From Dehalococcoidia bacterium (GTDB lineage Bacteria > Chloroflexota > Dehalococcoidia > Lucifugimonadales > UBA3495), in assembly GCA_965243255.1 (NCBI GenBank), contig CBDEUH010000004.1, positions 693,981 to 757,980 on the forward strand: a DNA stretch of 64,000 nt, in the 5' to 3' direction. This document shows, in pieces, positions 7,861-63,146 of the stretch (positions are counted from its first letter, which is position 1; every line of letters begins with the position of its first letter). The position numbers were made by a program, and so were the translations under genes. The notes under the pieces were generated by a model. That model ran no database searches. It had not been told where the DNA came from and saw only the letters and a program-made list of their open reading frames with translations.

Positions 7861-7887
7861 GCAGGGGCGGGTTTGAAACCCGCCCCT
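7861..7887. repeat. REP-like palindrome between convergent genes; possible terminator
   Basis: GCAGGGGCGGGTTTGAAACCCGCCCCT; related copies near 25385, 26785, 48274. Confidence 0.7.
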
Positions 7888-19269: not shown

Positions 19270-20166
19270 TCACGCCGGCAACAGTCCGGATACAAACAAT
19301 TCGTCCGGAAGCCGGCCGACGGCGTCAACAATGTCGTCCGTGTTCCCCGGAGGTTCCGCCAACGTTTTTGCAACCTTGTCGTTCAGAAACCCGTGCATTT
19401 CAGTCAAAGGTCGGTTGTTCCTGATTTGAATGAAGCCGACTTGATTGTTTTCGGCGGTTTGCCGAGCGTTGGAACGGGGTCCAATTTGGTCAAATATAAC
19501 CATTCCACCAGTTCCCACCCGGGTGATTTTGTCCTCAATGACTTCCTGATTGCCCCGTTCAATCAACCCCATCTCCACCCTGATACGCCCACGCCGGCTG
19601 GCGATTTCCACGTCGATTTCCCGAGGCACCTCTGCATCCCGCTGCATATTCAGCCAAAAATCCGTTCCTTCTTCCAAACCCAAAATGGTCAATCCAGCGC
19701 GCAGGAACGCCCTTTCCAGCGTTTTGCCGGCCGTTGACTTCCGCGAGCCACGTATGGTCAACGTAGCCGCCCCCGCCCAAAGCATCAGCATCCCGTCATC
19801 AAACGAACCGTCAGGTGAACCGTCGCTGACCTCCCTAACGTGCCGAGCTACTTCCTCCAGGTAATCTAGCTGTCCATCCCGGCGGATGCCCAGATTCTGC
19901 GCGGTTTTATTGGTAAGACCTAGCAGCCACCACGCCAGATCGTTCTCAGCTGCGTCCAACTCGGCCTCTATCGCGGTCATCCATTCCGTATGGCCGGCAT
20001 CCGCCGGCAACCGTTGCCGAACCGCCGTCAACTGCTGGTAGGCATCCAGCAACTGGTTCCGCGTCTGGCCCTCGGTGTACAGTCGGTAGTTGTAGCCTTG
20101 AAACAGCGCCGCCACTATCTGCCGCACTCCATCAGCGGAGTTCAGGTCATACAGGTTCGGCGTCAT
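19270..20166 (-). CDS. putative type II restriction endonuclease, CfrBI-like
   Basis: LGLTNK, TLTIRGSRKSTAGK.LE, E.D...EMG.I.RGN.EVI.DK; overlaps a methyltransferase. Confidence 0.7.
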   Translation of the reverse strand: MTPNLYDLNSADGVRQIVAALFQGYNYRLYTEGQTRNQLLDAYQQLTAVRQRLPADAGHTEWMTAIEAELDAAENDLAWWLLGLTNKTAQNLGIRRDGQLDYLEEVARHVREVSDGSPDGSFDDGMLMLWAGAATLTIRGSRKSTAGKTLERAFLRAGLTILGLEEGTDFWLNMQRDAEVPREIDVEIASRRGRIRVEMGLIERGNQEVIEDKITRVGTGGMVIFDQIGPRSNARQTAENNQVGFIQIRNNRPLTEMHGFLNDKVAKTLAEPPGNTDDIVDAVGRLPDELFVSGLLPA

Positions 20167-21313
20167 GTTCCGCGCTCCGGTAATACTGCAAATCGTCAAA
20201 GTCCACCGCAAAGTCAAAACCCGGCTGGCCCAGTTCCCTCCGTATCGTCTCGAAATAATCCGCCCGCTTTTCGATCACCAGGAATCGGCGCCCCATGGCG
20301 GCAGCCACCCGACCCACTGTGCCGGTGCCGGCGAATGGGTCAAGCACGCAGTCCCCTTCAAAGGAATAGTACCGGACGACCCGGCTGACCAGTTCATCCG
20401 GAAAAACGGCGGGATGAGCCCTGTGATTCGACGGGGTTATATCCCACACGTTTGTCTTGTCGTATTCGCCCAAAATCAGCGACCGTCCTACTGCCTCCGG
20501 GTCGGGATGATTATGCAGGTTCCAGTCAATCAGCCGGTCGGTTTTCTTACGATAAACCAACACGTACTCGGTTACGGTAACCGGCTTGTACTGCAACGGT
20601 TGCCGGTCGGCAGCAAAACGACGGCCCCGGCCCAGGTGCCAGCCCGCCCCTTCCGGCTTGCGCCAAATGATGTCGTCAATAAATTCAAACCCGATTCGGT
20701 CCAGTATGGGATGCAGGTCAAAGGGAATCGGCAACCTTTTGCTAGCCGTACTGCGCGAGGTCCGTCGCACCAGCACCGGTGATACGTTGACCACTAGAAA
20801 TCTCCCCTCGGCTAGTACGTCGTGGCAAGCGCCAAACGCCTCGCCCAAAAACTCCAGGTAGGATGGATAGTCAACGTACTCTGCACAGTCCGGCTTGGCG
20901 TTGTAATACGGTGGCGAGGTGAACACCAGCTGCGCGCTGTTAGCCGGAAACTCCGTCAAGACGGTGCGGCAGTCCCCCAATATCGCCTTATTGGGAATCG
21001 GCGGAAACGCAATCGGAGCTCTTTTTGCTAAGTAAAGGGGACGACGGTTATGTCGCAACTGGCGTAGCCGCTCGGACACCATGGTCGGAGCCGGAGCGCG
21101 GCAAATCTCGCCGTCGGCGTCAACTTGAACTTCTCCTACGGGATGGCTAGGCGCGGCATCGCACACCAGCGCCACCCGCCATAGGGCAAGCCGCCCGTCC
21201 CATTCCGGCAAGCCCAGAGATAAGCCGGCTCCTTCATTTGCCTGCATACATTCCTGTAGCCAACCTTGAGCCAGTCGGCGCACGTCGTCGGTCAACAATT
21301 TTTCGCCAATCAT
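20147..21313 (-). CDS. site-specific DNA methyltransferase (N4-cytosine, beta class)
   Basis: FTSPPY motif IV before HPAVFP and VLDPFAGTGT motif I; start uncertain (ORF opens at 21484). Confidence 0.9.
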   Translation of the reverse strand: MIGEKLLTDDVRRLAQGWLQECMQANEGAGLSLGLPEWDGRLALWRVALVCDAAPSHPVGEVQVDADGEICRAPAPTMVSERLRQLRHNRRPLYLAKRAPIAFPPIPNKAILGDCRTVLTEFPANSAQLVFTSPPYYNAKPDCAEYVDYPSYLEFLGEAFGACHDVLAEGRFLVVNVSPVLVRRTSRSTASKRLPIPFDLHPILDRIGFEFIDDIIWRKPEGAGWHLGRGRRFAADRQPLQYKPVTVTEYVLVYRKKTDRLIDWNLHNHPDPEAVGRSLILGEYDKTNVWDITPSNHRAHPAVFPDELVSRVVRYYSFEGDCVLDPFAGTGTVGRVAAAMGRRFLVIEKRADYFETIRRELGQPGFDFAVDFDDLQYYRSAEHDAEPV

Positions 21314-21465
21314 GGCGCTATTGTCGCAGGTTGCCAGGAACTTCCGCAAGGGCCGGCTGTCACCAGTCCCTTGCGCTATATCCGCCTTTGCCCCTAGGTA
21401 TCGTAATCGCTCCTCGGCACCGCCAACGCCCAATCCCGGCCTGCCCATCAATGTCAAAACCACAC

Positions 21466-21495
21466 TTGACAAATGCCAGAACATCAGTTCATAAT
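21466..21495 (+). promoter_or_regulatory. sigma70 promoter with LexA-type SOS box
   Basis: TTGACA-N18-CATAAT with GAAC-ATCA-GTTC at 21479-21490 overlapping the -10. Confidence 0.8.
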
Positions 21496-21529
21496 GCCCC
21501 CATCACTAGTGAAACCATCGGTACCCCAC

Positions 21530-21860
21530 AGCCTGCAACGAGGTAAATCAAGAACCATCACGGTTCCGGTCGTCAACGGCCACAACCGTCAGCAAATCCT
21601 AACAACGCACGCCGGTGCGGTCACAGCTGCCATTGACGGATAACAGATCGCCGTCACAAACACTGGAAGTGACAACGGTGCGGCCACAGCTGCCATTGAC
21701 GGATAACAGATGACCGTCATAGACACCGGAAGTGGCAACGGCGCGATACCACTGCGGCCAGTGCGGCTAACTACATGCTCGTACGAAAACACCTATGTGG
21801 AAGTGCGTAACCAACCCCCGGCCGTGGGGCTGACAACGACCACCTTACCTCTCGCAGGCT
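21530..21860 (+). ncRNA. candidate structured RNA/leader, element A
   Basis: Nested inverted repeats AGCCTGC/GCAGGCT, GAGGTAA/TTACCTC, ACGGCC/GGCCGT, ACGCAC/GTGCGT; motifs shared with 50162-50428. Confidence 0.55.
21613..21738. repeat. 63-bp tandem duplication (2 copies), each with a TGACGG/CCGTCA hairpin
   Basis: Units start at 21613 and 21676, partial third at 21739. Confidence 0.85.
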
Positions 21861-21908
21861 ACCCCCAAAATCCCGAAAACCCAATCCAACCTAAAGGAGC
21901 CAACCACG

Positions 21909-21983
21909 ATGACAACGAAACTAACGAACCCGATGGCTGCCAACCCAATCCCGCCAATTCCCAAATCCCGCAATCCCTGCTAA
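21909..21983 (+). CDS. 24-aa small ORF or gene remnant (MTTKLTNPMAANPIPPIPKSRNPC)
   Basis: AAGGAGCC RBS at 21894-21901; same position as cargo ORF of element B. Confidence 0.35.
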   Translation: MTTKLTNPMAANPIPPIPKSRNPC

Positions 21984-22163
21984 GGCGCCACCCCCCGTAG
22001 GGATGCACCCCCTGGGCTACCAACCGGCCACGTTCCGGTGTATAATCGGCAAGGTTTGCATCCTTCCGATGCTGCCTATCCAGCCTTGATATCCGGGCCC
22101 GTGTCCAACCATCCTTGGCAACCCGTCGCGGCCCGTGGCGCTGACCTTGCTGAGGAGGAAATC

Positions 22164-24392
22164 ATGCCGGAATCCGCCAAAATCATCTACACCGAAACTG
22201 ACGAGGCGCCGTTCCTCGCCACCCACTCGCTGCTGCCCATGCTCCAGGCTTTCACCAGGGGTTCGGGTATCGAACTTGAAACCTGGGACATCTCCCTGTC
22301 CGGCCGCATCATCGCGAATTTCCCCGACAATCTGACCGATGAGCAGCGCATCCCCGACTACCTGCGAATGTGCGGCGAGTTGTGCCTGGAGCCGTCGGCC
22401 AACCTGATCAAGCTGCCCAACATCAGCGCGTCTATTCCCCAGCTGAAGGGCGCTATCGCCGAGTTGCAGGCCAAGGGCTATGACATCCCCGACTACCCCG
22501 ACCAGCCAGCCAACGACGCCGAACGCGAAACCCAGGCGCGCTACTCCCGCGTCCTCGGCAGCGCCGTCAACCCGGTTATCCGCGAGGGCAACTCCGACCG
22601 CCGCTCTTCGAACGCGGTCAAGGAGCACGGCCAGCGCAACCCCCACCGGATGATGCAGGACTGGCCTGACATTTCCAAAACCCGCGTCGGCCACATGACC
22701 GACGGCGATTTTTTCAGCAGCGAGGTAGCCGTTACCACTACCGAAGCCGGCTCCGCCGCCATCCAGTTTGTCGCCGGCGACGGCAGCGTTACCGATCTCA
22801 AGTCCGGCATCCCACTGCAGGCCGGCGAGATCATCGACTGCGCCGTGATGAACGTCGGCAAGTTGCGGCAGTTCTACGCCGACCAGATGGCCCAGGCCAA
22901 AGCCGACGACGTACTACTCGGCCTCCACGTCAAGACTACCATGATGCGCGTGTCCGACCCCATCATCTTCGGACACCTGGTGTCGGAATTTTTCAAGGAC
23001 GTGTTTGACAAGCACGCCGACGCCCTCGCCCAAGTGGCCGTTGACCCGGACAACGGCGTTGCCGAGATGCTCACCAAGATCCAGGGGCTGCCCGAGGCAC
23101 AGCGCGCCGAAATCGAGGCCGACATCCAGGCCGCCTACGACAGCCGCCCCGACTTGATGATGGTCAACTCCTACCGTGGCATCACCAGTCTCCACGTGCC
23201 CAGCGACACCATCATTGACGCCTCTATGCCCGTGGTCATCCGCGACGGAGGGCGAACCTGGGGCCCCGACAACGAGCTCCACGACACCATCGCCCTGATT
23301 CCCGACCGCTCCTACGCCACCATCTACCAGGCGGTGGTTGAAGACTGCCAGCAACATGGCGCCCTCGATCCGGCGACACTCGGCAGCGTCGCCAACGTGG
23401 GGCTGATGGCCCAGGCCGCCGAGGAGTACGGCTCCCACGACAAGACCTTTACGGCCCCCGGCAGCGGCGCCATCCGCGTCGTTGACGCCTCCGGCGCAAC
23501 CCTGATGCAGCAGAGCGTTGAGGAAGGCGACATTTTCCGAATGTGCCAGACCAAGGACATTCCGATTCAGGACTGGGTGCGCCTTGGCGTTTCCCGCGCC
23601 CGGCTCACCGGCCAGGCCGCCATCTTCTGGCTCGATGCCAACCGCGCCCACGACGCCGAGTTGATCAAGAAGGTGGAACAGTATCTGCCCGAGCACGACA
23701 CTACCGGGTTGGACATCAGCACCCTGCCCCCGGTCGAAGCCATGAAGGCGACTGTTGCCCGCAGCCGGGCAAGCCAGGACACTATCGCGGTAACCGGCAA
23801 CGTCCTGCGCGACTATCTCACCGACCTTTTCCCCATCCTGGAACTGGGCACCAGCGCCAAGATGCTGTCCGTTGTTCCCCTGCTCAACGGTGGCGGCATG
23901 TTCGAGACCGGCGCCGGCGGTTCGGCGCCCCGTCACGTGCAGCAGTTCGTTGAGGAGGGCCATCTCCGCTGGGATTCACTGGGTGAGTTCTGCGCCCTGG
24001 TTGCCTCCTTCGAGCACTTCGGCGAGGTGTACGACAACGACCAGGCCAGGCTGCTGGCGGAAACCCTGGACCAGGCCATCGGTGAACATCTGGAACACCA
24101 GCGCAACCCGTCCCGCCGCGTCAACGAACTGGACACCCGGGGCAGCCATTTTTACCTGGCGCTCTACTGGGCCCAGGCGCTGGCCAACCAGACCAAGGAC
24201 CCGGCGGTGCGGGCCCGTTTCACCGATGTGGCCCGGCAGATGTCCGAAAACGAGGATAAGATTGTTCAGGAGCTGAATGACGCCCAGGGGCAGGCCATGG
24301 ACATCGGCGGCTACTATCGCCCCGACGCCCAAATGTCCGCCAACGCCATGCGCCCCAGCGCCAGCCTGAACGCCATCATCGACGCACTTTAA
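22164..24392 (+). CDS. icd: monomeric NADP-dependent isocitrate dehydrogenase
   Basis: [55 protein letters not shown]; GAGGAGG RBS. Confidence 0.97.
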
Positions 24393-26781: not shown

Positions 26782-26813
26782 AAAAAGGGGCGGGTCTGAA
26801 ACCCGCCCCCTTT
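26782..26813. terminator. bidirectional terminator/REP palindrome
   Basis: AAAAAGGGGCGGGTCTGAAACCCGCCCCCTTT between convergent genes. Confidence 0.7.
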
Positions 26814-48273: not shown

Positions 48274-48301
48274 AGGGGGCAGGTTTCAGACCCGCCCCTG
48301 C
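48274..48301. repeat. REP-like palindrome between tRNA and convergent gene
   Basis: AGGGGCAGGTTTCAGACCCGCCCCTGC. Confidence 0.65.
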
Positions 48302-49285: not shown

Positions 49286-50074
49286 TCAGCAGGATAGCTG
49301 GAGTGGGTCGGGGCGCTTGGTGCGGAAGGTTTTTTCCAGGGCGCGGCGCCAGAGAGGGGACAGGGTGATGCGGCTTTGGCTGACGGAGTTATGCCGGTCC
49401 CACAGGTCGGCGTGGCAGGGACAGCGTATAGGGGGACTGCCGAGGTCGTACCAGCCATGGGGGTCGGGTTCGGCGGCCAGGGGCGCGTCGAAGAGGTTGA
49501 AGCGGCTGCGGATTTCGGCGTAGTTGGGCAAGGTGAGGATGTCGCGGGCGGAATGGAGGTCGGGCAGTAGGGGACGGTCGGGCTTGCGGAGCCAGAGCTT
49601 GTGGTAGTGGACGGGTTTGGGTTGGCCGTTGATGAAGGCGGCGACGGCGGTGAGCATGGCGGCAACGCGGCGGCGCAGCCGTCGGAGGGTGATGGCGGTT
49701 CGGGCGCTGGATTCCGGCCGGGGCGGGAATGAAGGTGAGGGGCGTCCTTCGACAGGCTCAGGACGAGCGGGTGGTGCAGGGGGATGGTGAGCGGGGGGTG
49801 AGGCCAGGCGTTGAGGGAAGGAGTAGGTTTGCCGGAAGGTTTTGAGATGGCTGCGGCTGAGGCGCCCGGCAGCTACGGAGAGCTGAAGGGCGTACTCCAG
49901 CCGGCGGCGGCTGTTGTGTTTGAAGCCGTTGTGTACGGCCAGGGCGGTGGCCGCGTGGGAGGCGGCGCGGGACAGGGCCTGGGCGGCCTGGGCTGCGTCA
50001 TCGTGGGACATGGCCCGGTCGGCGCGCTGAAGGAACTCGGTGGCTTTGGCCTGGTGGTATGGGACGGCGCCCAT
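49286..50074 (-). CDS. orphan protein with PaREP1/HEPN-like N-terminus (cargo of element B)
   Basis: A.EFL..A...D..QA...AA.HA..A.A..G pattern; AAGGAGCC RBS at 50084-50091. Confidence 0.6.
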   Translation of the reverse strand: MGAVPYHQAKATEFLQRADRAMSHDDAAQAAQALSRAASHAATALAVHNGFKHNSRRRLEYALQLSVAAGRLSRSHLKTFRQTYSFPQRLASPPAHHPPAPPARPEPVEGRPSPSFPPRPESSARTAITLRRLRRRVAAMLTAVAAFINGQPKPVHYHKLWLRKPDRPLLPDLHSARDILTLPNYAEIRSRFNLFDAPLAAEPDPHGWYDLGSPPIRCPCHADLWDRHNSVSQSRITLSPLWRRALEKTFRTKRPDPLQLSC

Positions 50075-50161
50075 GGTAGTGAAGGCTCCTTGACAGGGGT
50101 TAGGGTTTTTTCATGGATTCACGGAATGGAGGGGATTGTGGGTTGTTCGGTTGGTTGGTGG

Positions 50162-50428
50162 CAGGGTCGATGAGGTTCAGGATGTCGGCGCTACGGCCAG
50201 AGAGCGTGGGCTGCGATGTTGCGTCCTAGAATCCCGCGTGCTGACCGGGGCCGGCTATCCTTCGACAAGCTGGGGATGAGCGGCTAAAGCGGCCCTCGCG
50301 GAGCGGTGGTGACACCCACCGTACTGGTCTATGCCATGCCGGTTAATAGGGCGGCCTCAGGCGATAGCCAGCGTTGCATGGAATCCGACTGATGGTTGAC
50401 CGTGTTGACCTGAACCTCGATGACCCTG
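50162..50428 (-). ncRNA. candidate structured RNA/leader, element B
   Basis: Closing helices 50162-50181 with 50409-50428 and several nested helices; motifs shared with element A. Confidence 0.55.
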
Positions 50429-50510
50429 GTTGTGGCGTGGTTGGATGAAGATGACGTCATCGGTCGGGCGTTGGGCCTTGTACTTCGGCTTTTGGCCTGA
50501 CGTTGGGTAC

Positions 50511-50540
50511 AGCATAGGGAACAGATGTACTGTTATACAA
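50511..50540 (-). promoter_or_regulatory. sigma70 promoter with LexA-type SOS box
   Basis: Minus-strand TTGTAT-N18-TATGCT with GTAC-ATCT-GTTC (50519-50530) in the spacer. Confidence 0.65.
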
Positions 50541-50665
50541 GGGGCCGGTGTCAGTAAAAAGGTTGAAACGATGGGGCGGTTAACCTAGAATGTGGGGCGG
50601 ATTGATCCAGAAATTCGCTTACCGCTCTGGCGCGCTTGCGCCGCTTACCATTGGGAGGCACCGGT

Positions 50666-58320: not shown

Positions 58321-61281
58321 GTGGCTCGGAAAGGACAAGACAGGCTGGCCCCAAAAACGGGTACGCGTCGAATGGTATCCACAGGACGAGACAGACTCAT
58401 TCCCGGCGTCCTGCGGTTGCTTGTCCTGGGCAGCGCGATAATCACACTATTGGCGGCGGCTTGCGGCGACCAGCCTCTCTCCACCGACGGGGAGAGGATT
58501 GGCCGGGAACTTTCTGATGACCGCAAACCGCTGGTCGCCTTGTACAATGCCACCAACGGCGCCGAATGGAGGAACAGCTCTCGATGGCTAACCGAGGAGT
58601 CTGTGGGATTTTGGCACGGTGTCATGTGGGGGGATCGCCAACGGGTTTCCGGTGGTCCCACTGGCAGCACCTTAATTATTGATGAAGGAGTTACGGAGCT
58701 GCACCTGGATAACAACGGATTGACAGGGGAAATACCCTCGGAGTTGGGCAATTTGGATTTTCTGGGGAGGCTGTTTCTTGGAGGAAACCGGCTAAGTGGG
58801 GAGATACCTTCCCAGCTGGGCAACCTCAACTCCTTGACGCATCTATTCCTGAACGGAAACGGATTGAGCGGGGAGATACCGAAGAATCTGGCTAAAGCCC
58901 GGTACCTGTCGTACCTGCATCTTGGCGGAAACCAGTTGAGCGGTGAGATACCCTCCGAACTGGGCGACTTGAGGGACCTGATTTCTCTGAGCCTCAGCCA
59001 CAACAATTTGACCGGCGAAATCCCCTCCAGCCTGGGCAGTCTGCGTCGGCTGTCAAACCTTCACCTCACCGGAAATCAATTGGCCGGCCAGATTCCTGAC
59101 GAGTTGAACCGTTCCGATTTCGGTAGCATATATCTGGGTGGGAATCAGCTCACCGGTTGCATACCTGGCCGTCTGGCTTCCGCTGCGAGGCACGACCTCT
59201 TGAAGCTTCGCCTGCCGCTCTGTGGGAGTGGAGCTGTGTTTCAGCCGGAGGGTGACGTGGCCGCGTTGACCGCACTGTATTTTGCCACTGACGGAGAAAA
59301 CTGGACTGACGACAGCAACTGGATGATTACCGACGGGCGGACAAATAAGCCTGTACCTCGGTGGCACGGCGTGAGGATAGCTCCCGGAACCGGTTACCCC
59401 GTGGAATCGCTGTTGCTGCCGGGGAATCACTTGAACGGCTCAATCCCTCCCGAACTGGGAAATCTGGCGTACATCCGATTGCTCAATCTGGCGCAAAACA
59501 ACCTGAGCGGTGAGATTCCCCCGTCGCTGAGCAATTTGCAAACACTCTGGGAACTGAACCTTTCCGATAACAACCTAAACGGTCAGATACCCGACGAGTT
59601 GACCGGCATGGTGAATCTGATTGACGTGGACCTGAGCGGGAATCAGTTGATCGGAGAGATACCTGCGGGGCTGAGCGACCTGAGCCGTTTGGCCCACCTT
59701 GACCTTAGCGGAAACGAACTGACCGGCGAGATTCCGCGAGAGCTGGTCGACATTCGGCTGGCAACGCTGCGCCTGGCGGGAAACAGGTTTACGGGGTGTA
59801 TCCTCGGCGGCCTGACTCGGGTTCCCAAAAATGACCTGTCCGAGATCGGGTTACCCTACTGTGATGAACGGGGGAACCAGGTCTTTCCGGCTCGAGACCG
59901 GGCCGCGCTGACCGCGCTTTACCACGCCACCGGCGGAGAAGACTGGAGGGATAACACCAACTGGCTGACAGACAAGCCGCTGGGGACCTGGTATGGCGTC
60001 GGAGCCGCGTGGGATTCAAACAGCGTTACGGCGCTAAACCTGAGTCAGAACAACTTGCGCGGGGAAATTCCGCACCAGTTGGGCGATATTGATAATCTTC
60101 GGAAGCTGGACTTGTCGAAAAATTACCTTACCGGGAAGATTCCGTCCGAACTGAGCAAGCTGGATAAAATGCTGGACCTAGAGCTGTACTGGAATGAGTT
60201 GAGCGGTGGGATACCCGTTCAGCTAAGCGACCTCTCGTCACTGCAAAGGCTGTCTCTGGGGAGAAACAAATTGAGCGGGGAGATACCGGCCGAGTTGGGC
60301 AACCTGCACGGTCTCGAGGATCTGCGACTTTCCGGGAACAATTTGAGCGGGGAGATACCGGCCGAGTTGGGCAACCTGCACAGTCTCGAGGGGCTGCGAC
60401 TTTCCGGGAACAAATTGAGCGGAGAGATACCGGCCGAGTTGGCAGGGGCCCGGAGCCTGGTCAAGCTTTCTCTCGGTGAGAACGAATTGTCAGGGTGCAT
60501 TGCCAAGGAGTTGTACAGTATCGATGACAACGACCTGAAAACCCTCAAACTGCCGACCTGCGTAAAGCGAGTTACCTCCGCTCCTCCTGGCAGCGTCCTG
60601 GCTGCCCTGATCGCCCTCTACAATGCTACCGGGGGAGAAGACTGGCAGGACAACACCAACTGGTTGACGGACCAGCCGATAAAAACGTGGTACGGGGTCA
60701 GCACCGATTTGAATTCAGGCAACGTCATTGCGCTACACCTCGATGGGAACAACCTGAGCGGGCAAATGCCGCCCGAGTTGGGCAACCTCAAAGACCTCCA
60801 GCATCTGAATCTATCAAGAAACGCCTTCACGGGAAGGATACCTGCCGAGATTGGCGAACTCTCGTCGCTGGAATACCTGGATCTGCGGGACAGCAACTTG
60901 ACCGGGACGATTCCGCCACAGTTGGGCCGGCTGGCCCATCTGTACCGGCTCTACCTGAATGGGAACCGACTGACAGGGCAAATTCCTGCCGAGATGGGCA
61001 ACCTGCATAGCCTGTTTGACCTATCGCTTCGGGACAATAATCTGAGCGGGCAAATTCCTCCGGCAATGGGTAACCTCCATAACCTGGGGGTGTTGAAACT
61101 TCAGAACAACAACCTGAGCGGAGAAATACCGGCCGAGTTGGCCGGCGCCCGCAGCCTGGGGGTAGTTTATCTCGGTGGAAACCCGCTTACCGGGTGCATC
61201 CCCCGGGGCTGGCCGAAACTCGGACACAGCGACTTCGCGACGATTCAAATGCCCTTGCGGTTCTGTCGAGAATCGCAATAG
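58321..61281 (+). CDS. four-module plant-type leucine-rich-repeat lipoprotein
   Basis: LLAAAC lipobox; four ALY.AT.G..W..W...W.GV caps; 24-aa L.L..N.L.G.IP.ELG repeats; GCI caps; start may be 58372. Confidence 0.9.
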   Translation: MARKGQDRLAPKTGTRRMVSTGRDRLIPGVLRLLVLGSAIITLLAAACGDQPLSTDGERIGRELSDDRKPLVALYNATNGAEWRNSSRWLTEESVGFWHGVMWGDRQRVSGGPTGSTLIIDEGVTELHLDNNGLTGEIPSELGNLDFLGRLFLGGNRLSGEIPSQLGNLNSLTHLFLNGNGLSGEIPKNLAKARYLSYLHLGGNQLSGEIPSELGDLRDLISLSLSHNNLTGEIPSSLGSLRRLSNLHLTGNQLAGQIPDELNRSDFGSIYLGGNQLTGCIPGRLASAARHDLLKLRLPLCGSGAVFQPEGDVAALTALYFATDGENWTDDSNWMITDGRTNKPVPRWHGVRIAPGTGYPVESLLLPGNHLNGSIPPELGNLAYIRLLNLAQNNLSGEIPPSLSNLQTLWELNLSDNNLNGQIPDELTGMVNLIDVDLSGNQLIGEIPAGLSDLSRLAHLDLSGNELTGEIPRELVDIRLATLRLAGNRFTGCILGGLTRVPKNDLSEIGLPYCDERGNQVFPARDRAALTALYHATGGEDWRDNTNWLTDKPLGTWYGVGAAWDSNSVTALNLSQNNLRGEIPHQLGDIDNLRKLDLSKNYLTGKIPSELSKLDKMLDLELYWNELSGGIPVQLSDLSSLQRLSLGRNKLSGEIPAELGNLHGLEDLRLSGNNLSGEIPAELGNLHSLEGLRLSGNKLSGEIPAELAGARSLVKLSLGENELSGCIAKELYSIDDNDLKTLKLPTCVKRVTSAPPGSVLAALIALYNATGGEDWQDNTNWLTDQPIKTWYGVSTDLNSGNVIALHLDGNNLSGQMPPELGNLKDLQHLNLSRNAFTGRIPAEIGELSSLEYLDLRDSNLTGTIPPQLGRLAHLYRLYLNGNRLTGQIPAEMGNLHSLFDLSLRDNNLSGQIPPAMGNLHNLGVLKLQNNNLSGEIPAELAGARSLGVVYLGGNPLTGCIPRGWPKLGHSDFATIQMPLRFCRESQ
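60271..60441 (+). repeat. near-identical 72-bp tandem LRR-coding repeats
   Basis: TTGAGCGG.GAGATACCGGCCGAGTTGG at 60271, 60343, 60415. Confidence 0.85.
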
Positions 61282-63062: not shown

Positions 63063-63096
63063 ACTATGTTTTCATTGTAGCATATGAACTATCGGA

Positions 63097-63133
63097 ATCA
63101 GGATTCTGGGGATTAGAGGATTTACGGGATTGG
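63097..63133. repeat. 9-bp-period GGATT (AATCC) repeat
   Basis: ATCAGGATTCTGGGGATTAGAGGATTTACGGGATT. Confidence 0.6.
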
Positions 63134-63146
63134 GTGGGGGAGCTGA

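Follow-up and report, generated by a model that had tools for sequence, protein, structure and literature searches.

A repeated promoter cassette with a LexA-type box and a pseudoknotted structured RNA in a sponge-associated Dehalococcoidia bacterium

The window analysed here, a stretch of 64,000 nucleotides (nt) from a Dehalococcoidia bacterium (assembly GCA_965243255.1, contig CBDEUH010000004.1, positions 693,981 to 757,980 of the forward strand), contains at 21449-21983 a segment called Element A, in which a promoter with a LexA-type box is followed by a long tract of nested inverted repeats and an open reading frame (ORF) of only 24 amino acids (aa). What such a segment does when it carries almost no gene of its own is the question that this locus raises. 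An original prediction, made from the letters alone, took it for the first copy of a candidate new element family whose RNA might itself be the product. The analysis revealed that Element A is one of 27 copies in its genome, and that the family is a previously undescribed structured RNA of sponge-associated Dehalococcoidia, borne on a repeated promoter cassette. The structure of this RNA is conserved and covaries on the + strand, and the cassette descends from the leader of the gene for HHL, our name for a lineage-specific, HEPN-like protein of ~190 aa starting M/V/L-N-P-x-H-H-L-x-R-S; the same leader stands before dinB in some other species. On balance, and with modest confidence, we take Element A for a gene-less expression cassette gated by LexA, from which a structured RNA would read on towards the downstream gene, here the isocitrate dehydrogenase gene icd.

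A repeat family in the genome and the genus

The host genome (3.17 Mb in 4 contigs, 95% complete) was searched with the segment 21466-22163, and a total of 26 BLAST loci were obtained. Ten of these, the window included, show 88-100% identity over ~360-465 nt, ten further loci show 77-83% identity, and six are short forms in which another ~150-nt segment replaces the inner ~200 nt; a 27th copy, more diverged, was recovered through its box. Overall, the copies share 77-96% identity over 270-460 nt, with 88-96% within a subfamily, and by our own reading of the alignments the family is a mosaic, the promoter types, 5' palindromes and RNA bodies being reassorted among copies. The core 16-mer was detected in 32 of the 54 genomes of the genus, with 1-68 copies each, whereas the reversed control pattern gave 0 matches. 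In a scan of species-representative genomes the matching named records were mostly metagenome-assembled genomes of Dehalococcoidia or Chloroflexota, and the scattered single matches in other, mostly high-G+C, taxa were taken for chance; BLAST of the element in 16 genomes from other families of the order gave no match.

The candidate new family is thus real, with 27 copies in one genome and homologues across the genus, and the earlier view that it belongs to no recognised RNA family also held, as Rfam 15, whose families include HEARO, T-box, 6S, OLE and riboswitches, gave no match in the element. At gathering thresholds the whole window yielded 2 tRNAs only, the region 21300-22250 searched at E-values up to 10 gave 3 chance-level hits of 12-16 bits, and among 12 family loci searched at E-values up to 0.1 the sole hit was a T-box lying outside the element. 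A literature search, with subscription papers and supplements outside its reach, found no description of this RNA or of a LexA-box repeat in Chloroflexota. Two kinds of read data were set aside and not used as evidence. In three DNA-type runs the word depth of the element lies far above that of its flanks, as expected of a repeat. The contigs of a sponge metatranscriptome place pieces on 21612-21899 and have zero depth at 21300-21484 and 21929-22002, but many copies and organisms contribute to them, and they cannot show transcription, transcript ends or strand.

Promoter, operator and RNA fold

A check of the window sequence located every motif that had been read in Element A (promoter, box, five nested inverted repeats, AAGGAG and ORF), each where it had been placed. 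The features of the element and of the gene that follows it are as follows.

21449-21465, + strand: promoter-proximal block, ATGTCA here; in most copies TGACACC-N5-6 stands ahead of TTGACA.
21466-21471, + strand: -35 hexamer TTGACA; TTGAC is present in 27/27 copies (own reading of the alignment rows).
21479-21490, + strand: LexA-type operator GAACATCAGTTC (GAAC-N4-GTTC), with a one-base overlap with the -10.
21490-21495, + strand: -10 hexamer CATAAT, part of the sole sigma-70-like site in the scan.
21503-21512, + strand: perfect 10-nt palindrome TCACTAGTGA at the predicted RNA 5' end.
21530-21546, + strand: 5' strands of the closing helix P1, AGCCTGC (21530-36) and GAGGTAA (21540-46); subfamily 2 has GAGGTC/GACCTC, a compensatory change.
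21552-21566, + strand: small variable hairpin GAACC-ATCAC-GGTTC, missing from subfamily 2.
21568-21581, + strand: 5' strands of P2 (GGTCGT, 21568-73) and P3 (ACGGCC, 21576-81), with 97.0% and 94.1% of cells paired, respectively.
21588-21593, + strand: 5' strand of the pseudoknot helix, GTCAGC, 100% paired.
21605-21610, + strand: 5' strand of P4, ACGCAC; the inner pair is A-U (17), U-A (8) or, in subfamily 1, C-G.
21613-21802, + strand: variable inner domain, with 63-nt hairpin modules at 21613-75 and 21676-738 plus a degenerate third.
21803-21860, + strand: 3' core, made of GTGCGT for P4 (21803-08), CCCCC, GGCCGT for P3 (21820-25), GGG, GCTGAC for the pseudoknot (21829-34), ACGACC for P2 (21836-41), and TTACCTC (21845-51) and GCAGGCT (21854-60) for P1.
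21861-21893, + strand: A/C-rich, G-poor linker with 1 G in 33 nt; a similar linker follows the RNA in the copies displayed.
21894-21983, + strand: Shine-Dalgarno (SD)-like AAGGAG (21894-99) and 24-aa ORF (21909-21983); the homologous positions start the HHL gene in relatives.
22039-22046, + strand: the extended -10 of icd itself, TGTATAAT, conserved in the relatives G058 and G050, which have no element there.
22164-24392, + strand: icd, monomeric isocitrate dehydrogenase (Pfam PF03971, E = 0), co-oriented with Element A.

The block at 21449-21465 marks the 5' limit of the repeat, and conservation is weaker over the ~17 nt preceding the promoter; a few BLAST matches begin at 21447-21462 but most begin at 21465/21466, so the repeat starts with the promoter. 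TTGACA-N18-CATAAT, with its 18-nt spacer, spans 21466-21495 and is the only sigma-70-like site in 21300-22300, with 11 of 12 positions matched against 0.4 such sites expected from shuffles; its spacing would put the transcription start near 21502 on the + strand. In every copy the RNA would open with ~10 bases that form a perfect palindrome, whose sequence differs between copies, such as CGCTAGCG, CACGCGTG, GTGCAC and CACGTG. The - strand upstream of the element carries, at 19270-21484, genes of a type II restriction-modification pair, namely an N6/N4 DNA methylase and a CfrBI-like endonuclease; since the methylase ORF is listed at 20147-21484, its start falls inside the LexA-type box, and the true start is probably further in, with the ATG at 21448 as an alternative. 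Downstream, the gene next after icd on the + strand encodes malate dehydrogenase.

The box taken alone is not significant: two GAAC-N4-GTTC boxes occur in the window against 0.95 expected, a number reached in 25 of 100 shuffles, and the 44 perfect boxes of the whole genome compare with ~41 by a composition-based estimate. Its placement among the copies is another matter, as 24 of the 27 have a perfect box between the -35 and the -10, and the family therefore holds more than half of the perfect boxes of the genome (24/44). TTGACA, GAAC, GTTC and the -10 are kept in the 27 copies, whereas variation is free in the 5-7 nt that separate the -35 from the box and in the central N4 (ATCA, GTCC, GTGC, GCAC, ACCT, ATTC, GTAC or ATAC). 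Even where copies share 93-96% identity overall, this spacer (21472-21478 here) is almost randomised.

GAAC-N4-GTTC is presumably the box used by the LexA of Dehalococcoides. The same sequence is the LexA consensus of B. subtilis (PMC4234289). Both lexA (G000:C4 about 1392085-1392276) and recA are present in the genome. The promoter of a Y-family (IMS) polymerase gene, TTGACT-GGC-GAACGTTCGTTC-TTTATCAT, has the same layout as the cassette; a radical-SAM/HhH gene has a perfect box directly after a -10-like site; and recA has two boxes with one mismatch each, GAACGCCCGTGC, which abuts TATTAT, and GAACAAGCGTGC. Because the box recurs in 24/27 copy promoters with a variable N4, in the polymerase promoter and, near consensus, at recA, the proposed LexA operator is plausible, and LexA control of the cassette promoter is a good inference from these sequences. 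A separate repeat of three copies (G000:C4 1956885, 2807227 and 2807908; L196, L197) also carries CGAACGTATGTTCATAAT, a perfect box with a -10; it sits near AAA_19 helicase-like genes, and a gene for a 620-aa TnpB/Cas12f-like protein lies 572 nt downstream of one of the boxes.

The RNA fold was scored on an alignment of 39 sequences (the window, 10 other copies of the same genome and 28 from 24 relatives) and 45 pairs, and seven helices were written: P1, P2 (GGUCGU/ACGACC), P3 ((C)ACGGCC/GGCCGU(G)), the pseudoknot (GUCAG/CUGAC), P4 and the inner P5 and P6. P1 reads GCCAGAGGUGA/UCACCUCUGGC in the relatives, and in the host genome a small internal loop splits it in two. A total of 89.6% of cells are paired, compared with 25.3-38.1% when the partners are slid by 1-3 columns, a contrast inflated by the derivation of the structure from the same 39 sequences. 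Compensatory base-pair change across homologues, the criterion of a structured non-coding RNA, was observed in these paired cells, whose number 0/500 shuffles reach, in the number of double-change cells (67, against 27.6 +/- 5.0 in shuffles, with 0/500 reaching 67) and in the covariation score (0.127, against 0.093 in shuffles, with 0/500 reaching the observed value). The nested helices of the original prediction are real and covary. Missing from that prediction is a sixth complementarity, between GTCAGC (21588-93) and GCTGAC (21829-34), whose helix crosses that of ACGGCC/GGCCGT. One pair of this pseudoknot helix occurs as C-G (30 sequences) or U-A (9 sequences), and the helix as a whole takes three states, GUCAG/CUGAC, GUUAG/CUAAC and, in the diverged paralogue Element B described below, GUCGG/CCGAC; RNAalifold, run blind, recovers GUCAG/CUGAC. 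Diverged paralogues retain the helices through double changes, and many G-U pairs are compatible with the + strand only.

Across the genus the best conserved region is the 3' core, ...UUGCGUAA-CCCCC-GGCCGU-GGG-GCUGAC-AA-CGACC..., which has many invariant columns, and invariant unpaired runs of bases lie between the helices. The inner domain behaves differently. Its 63-nt tandem repeat (2.1 copies at 21613-21745), which the earlier reading did not contain, is part of a larger set, as 20 copies contain 55 such modules, which fall into 21 sequence types; their outer stem reads GCCAC/GUGGC or GUCAC/GUGAC, the inner hairpin varies between A-U and G-U, and the stems are kept across all 55 modules. 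Two candidate identities were rejected here: template and variable repeats like those of a diversity-generating retroelement, because by our own reading the differences between the 63-nt units are not adenine-specific, and a CsrA sponge of the CsrB/RsmZ type with GGA in hairpin loops, because the 95%-complete genome has no PF02599 match.

The invariant segments of P2 and P3 (alignment columns 216-229 and 572-583) can also pair locally, which excludes the long-range helices, and a conformational switch is therefore possible. Element A might then be a riboswitch-like cis regulator in which a ligand or signal toggles between long-range P2/P3 and local hairpins, exposing or hiding either the G-poor linker, for Rho loading, or a ribosome-binding site. 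The invariant unpaired strings between the helices fit such a device, as do the linker, whose C/G ratio is 2.9 over 130 nt, the rho gene present in the genome, and a sequence scan that found no intrinsic terminator or RNA 3' end near the element. However, known aptamers do not resemble an RNA that measures 215-400 nt and whose inner domain can be replaced freely, no common pathway links the downstream genes, and some targets have a leader of their own between element and gene; we give this explanation very little credence.

Origin, gene context and movement of the cassette

The source of the cassette was traced in relatives, where the same leader, in one or a few copies each, precedes the HHL gene in seven genomes (G049, G017, G057, G050, G062, G014 and G018) and dinB in five (G045, G053, G059, G067 and G008; Pfam checked for one), with no HHL gene beside the leader at the dinB loci. 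The host genome itself has three HHL paralogues, each behind its own diverged leader. One of them lies in the window behind Element B, whose core reads GGCCGTAGCGCCGAC; the unit at 49286-50553 on the - strand, with the leader directly upstream of the HHL-family gene, represents the ancestral arrangement.

50162-50553, - strand: Element B, promoter with TGACACC (50553-47), box GTACATCTGTTC (50530-19) and -10 CTATGCT (50517-11).
50162-50553, - strand: Element B, helices P1 (50428-09/50181-62), P3 (ACGGTC 50403-398/GGCCGT 50198-93) and pseudoknot (GTCGG 50389-85/CCGAC 50188-84).
49286-50074, - strand: HHL-family gene behind Element B, with SD AAGGAG at 50091-86 (E = 6.8e-54 to the family profile).

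This Element B, at ~50162-50553, is evidently the Element B of the original prediction. It is a paralogue of the same cassette, but a diverged one on the - strand rather than a close copy: blastn (word size 7) and nhmmer with Element A found no second close copy in the rest of the window, and Element B was too diverged for either, being found only through its HHL gene.

The end of Element A preserves a trace of the same arrangement, since in the alignment its SD-like motif and ORF correspond to the SD and opening codons of the HHL gene. By our own reading an ATG stands at the ORF start in only ~6 of 26 aligned copies, with ACG or ACC in the others, and the peptide is not the same from copy to copy. 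The 24-aa ORF, which had been read as a tiny cargo, is a degenerate, non-conserved vestige of the start of an ancestral ~190-aa gene. At three dinB loci (L048, L070 and L074, in G008, G053 and G059) a degenerate fragment of ~35 codons resembling the start of dinB lies ~60-200 nt upstream of the -35 of the element, with an intact dinB after the element, which suggests that the cassette, or the cassette together with dinB, was inserted into an older dinB.

The HHL protein matches no Pfam or NCBIfam family, Pfam HEPN included, and its 59 homologues are all unnamed or "hypothetical". A profile search at order level gave weak N-terminal matches only, in 9 out of 150 further genomes, while the other genera of the family, represented by 4 genomes, gave 0 matches; HHL is essentially confined to the genus. 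The predicted structure is a helical bundle (predicted local distance difference test, pLDDT, 86.8) whose top Foldseek hits are HEPN proteins, including toxins of HEPN-MNT pairs, although the best match is weak (E = 0.02, TM 0.50/0.73) and helical bundles match easily; an atlas search added weak HEPN/PaREP1 leads. HEPN domains combine the HEPN fold with an R-x4-6-H catalytic motif.

These observations bear on the possibility that a stand-alone RNA and the HEPN-like HHL protein form a cognate pair, as an RNA antitoxin or regulator of a HEPN-type effector or as a ribonucleoprotein of the HEARO/omega-RNA kind borne by a mobile element, in which case the ORF-less copies, Element A among them, would be orphan RNA genes and the proximity of genes incidental. 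That each of the three HHL paralogues has a diverged leader of its own, so that RNA and protein change together, speaks for such a pair together with the HEPN fold matches. So does the relative G021, in which RNA and HHL lie inside an element with terminal inverted repeats (TIRs) and target-site duplications, the RNA nearly invariant and the ORF truncated or frameshifted, and in which 7 of 20 copies do not face a gene. Against the pair stand the weak fold match, an RNA for which no 3' end or terminator was found, the leaders that precede dinB without a neighbouring HHL gene, and the orientation of the host-genome copies, and we consider it unlikely.

The orientation is uniform. All 27 copies in the host genome are followed on the same strand by a Pfam-supported gene that starts roughly 90-650 nt after P1, and three alternative ORFs on the opposite strand, when tested, matched no Pfam family. 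The downstream genes are unrelated and include two isocitrate/isopropylmalate dehydrogenases, three thiamine pyrophosphate (TPP) enzymes, PolA, a ClpB/C-type ATPase, RelA/SpoT, SelB, PanB, SppA, an aminotransferase, an E1 dehydrogenase, a CoA-transferase, a penicillin amidase and a phage-type prohead protease and capsid, among others. In G041 the element is inserted before icd at the same distance, while G058 lacks the insertion and keeps the icd promoter. The suggestion that the RNA itself is the product was not upheld, as 27/27 copies point at a gene and Element A lies upstream of a conserved icd promoter.

Signs of movement of the unit were found in G021, where inverted repeats of ~25 nt bound it (L212-L231); one end has GG(C/T)AGCGTTCCGTT... 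and the opposite end ...AACGGAACGCT(G/A)CC, with the left motif in 14/20 and the right in 16/20 copies. Target duplications of 9 bp were found, by our own reading of the flanks, in ~10 of the 12 copies with both ends. A single deletion junction directly past the first HHL codons is shared by 13/20 copies, and the remaining 7/20 have longer, often frameshifted HHL remnants. The TIRs and target-site duplications of a miniature inverted-repeat transposable element or TIR transposon are therefore present in G021 but were not found in the host genome, where no flanking inverted repeat rose above shuffled controls in the 19/27 copies examined, and where the few TIR motifs of the G021 type all stand more than 600 nt away from any copy.

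It could be argued from this that the family is merely selfish or duplicated DNA with a promoter, conserved through recent spread and gene conversion, and that the fold mattered at most in the ancestral HHL leader. The 88-96% identity within a subfamily, the reassortment of promoter and RNA-body types, which suggests recombination, and the TIRs, duplications and common deletion junction of G021 are what such DNA would show. Random insertion, however, should leave about half of the copies co-oriented rather than 27/27, the half-sites and hexamers are retained while adjoining bases are scrambled, and the differences between subfamilies and between 63-nt modules preserve pairing through compensatory or G-U changes; the negative TIR results in the host genome also count against it. 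We regard this account as rather improbable.

Several other repeats were observed beside these. A phased A/C-rich repeat, with AATCC about every 10 nt and ending in ATCCTGATTCTGAC, lies at ~63070-63140 (- strand) of the window and has 38 sites in G000:C4; 23 of the 38 are within 300 nt of an element copy and always on the same strand, many host-genome copies have the repeat on one or both flanks, and the remaining sites include positions shortly before promoters or next to a tRNA gene. Elsewhere in the window, a 986-aa ORF at 58321-61281 contains leucine-rich-repeat-like units of 72 nt (24 aa), of which eleven copies were detected, and a GC-rich hairpin, GGGGCGGGTTTGAAACCCGCCCC, that looks like a shared terminator or a repetitive extragenic palindromic (REP)-like element stands at three gene ends (7861-7886, 26786-26811 and 48274-48301).

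Weighing the readings and comparison with known systems

The reading that we favour is the expression cassette. LexA would keep its promoter closed; upon DNA damage the structured RNA, of ~360 nt here, would be made and transcription would continue towards icd, which retains its own promoter; and the pseudoknotted core may be a recognition surface for a partner (the HHL protein, another factor or a ligand) that decides what becomes of the transcript. Binding by LexA, transcription, read-through and an influence, if any, on icd are here predicted from sequence. The weights given to this reading and to its rivals overlap and are not meant to sum to one.

A number of results weigh against it. At the operator, the upstream region of lexA has no perfect box, and in relatives the right half-site is often degenerate, the box reading GAAC-N4-GTAC in 15/20 G021 copies. 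At the level of the fold, the original prediction had staked its structured RNA on a folding energy better than that of shuffles, and this was found on neither strand: 21496-21908 gave z = -1.37 on the + strand, with 10/100 shuffles folding as well, and z = 0.00 on the - strand. Besides the circularity of the slid controls, double changes occur in 10 pairs, which is what shuffles give (mean 9.8, with 302/500 reaching 10). RNAalifold puts local hairpins, GGUCG..CGGCC and CCCG..UGGG, in place of P2/P3 and leaves out P1, the register of which varies from one subfamily to another. As for the genes, icd keeps its own promoter downstream of Element A, with the sequence from ~22016 conserved in G058 and G050 and the upstream DNA different; a T-box leader (104 bits; L010:3963-4208, G000:C4 about 105636-105881) lies between one copy and a gene for a TPP enzyme that is acetolactate-synthase-like; and of the 68 copies in G021 the first 20 were sampled, of which only 12 face a Pfam-supported gene, 7 facing the 3' end of an opposite-strand gene and 1 being unresolved.

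What these results change is the scope of the reading. The case for RNA structure is carried by covariation and not by folding energy, and the features are non-random because they are conserved and covary across the 27 genomic copies and the relatives. Long-range P2 is favoured by the HHL1 paralogue, in which CUUCG/CGAAG replaces GGUCG/CGACC, and long-range P2/P3 by Element B, which is unable to form the local hairpin. Because the icd promoter is conserved without the element, and because a bona fide T-box follows one copy, the element is an add-on and not the primary leader of the downstream genes; the 12/20 gene-facing copies of G021 show that a leader role is not general.

If the reading is right, uncultured sponge-associated Dehalococcoidia would possess a new family of large structured RNAs of 215-400 nt, with a pseudoknotted core, up to 68 copies per genome and a tie to the SOS response. 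It would be a case of a whole unit of promoter and leader copied before dozens of unrelated genes (icd, polA, relA/spoT, clpC-like, selB and panB among them), through which a DNA-damage regulon would have been enlarged by duplicating regulatory DNA and not by point mutation. Since the source leader is traceable (HHL, dinB) and a sister species has the unit moving with TIRs and target-site duplications, the steps by which a gene leader became a mobile cassette can be studied directly.

Among known systems, T-box leaders (RF00230) resemble the cassette as long structured leaders found in many copies before different genes, but no similarity was found, and T-box targets are functionally related whereas those of the cassette are not. 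In type III toxin-antitoxin systems (ToxIN), one promoter serves a repeat-array RNA, a terminator and the small protein gene that comes next, which encodes an endoribonuclease of the ToxN/AbiEii type; such systems are often on mobile DNA. The cassette likewise places a non-coding RNA, in some versions with tandem repeats, before a small protein gene; membership was nevertheless rejected, as HHL is HEPN-like and not ToxN-like and has no Pfam or NCBIfam family, the repeats occur in some subfamilies only, and no terminator separates RNA and gene.

Correia, ERIC and REPIN sequences are small repeats that bear promoters (PMC3575422). The cassette is similarly dispersed, intergenic and promoter-supplying. 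Pneumococcal BOX elements are modular, with a variable number of internal units, and mycobacterial REP13E12 repeats carry a LexA box; the cassette has a BOX-like modularity and, as in REP13E12, an SOS box. It differs from such small repeats in being larger, in lacking TIRs in the host genome, in its long-range covarying helices and in the gene co-orientation of 27/27 copies.

HEARO RNA, or the omega-RNA of IscB, is a large structured RNA with many copies per genome, some with a cognate ORF and many ORF-less, and is linked to mobile DNA. The cassette shares the multicopy structured RNA, the cognate ORF of some copies and the link to mobile DNA, but it has no Rfam match, its linked ORF encodes a HEPN-like protein of ~190 aa and not an HNH/RuvC nuclease, and it has its own LexA-box promoter. 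Pursued further, this likeness would make the RNA and HHL a new SOS-controlled RNA-protein system of mobile origin, with an RNA-neutralised or RNA-directed HEPN effector, whose RNA multiplied free of the ORF (to 27 copies here and 68 in a relative), as HEARO and omega-RNAs had done by the time their nuclease partners came to be understood, and was possibly co-opted here to wire unrelated housekeeping genes to DNA damage; we offer this as a speculation with a small chance of being correct.

The nearest known concept is the putative mobile promoter, defined by sequences that share 80% identity or more across 50 nt or more and stand in front of unrelated, non-paralogous genes in one genome; some of these carry RNA motifs, and their way of movement is described as unknown (Matus-Garcia, Nijveen and van Passel 2012; PMC3575422). 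With 77-96% identity over 270-460 nt and downstream genes from unrelated Pfam families, the copies described here fall within this concept, and they differ from the promoters gathered under it in a far longer unit (~340-450 nt), a defined operator, a pseudoknotted RNA outside the Rfam families and a source gene that can be named.

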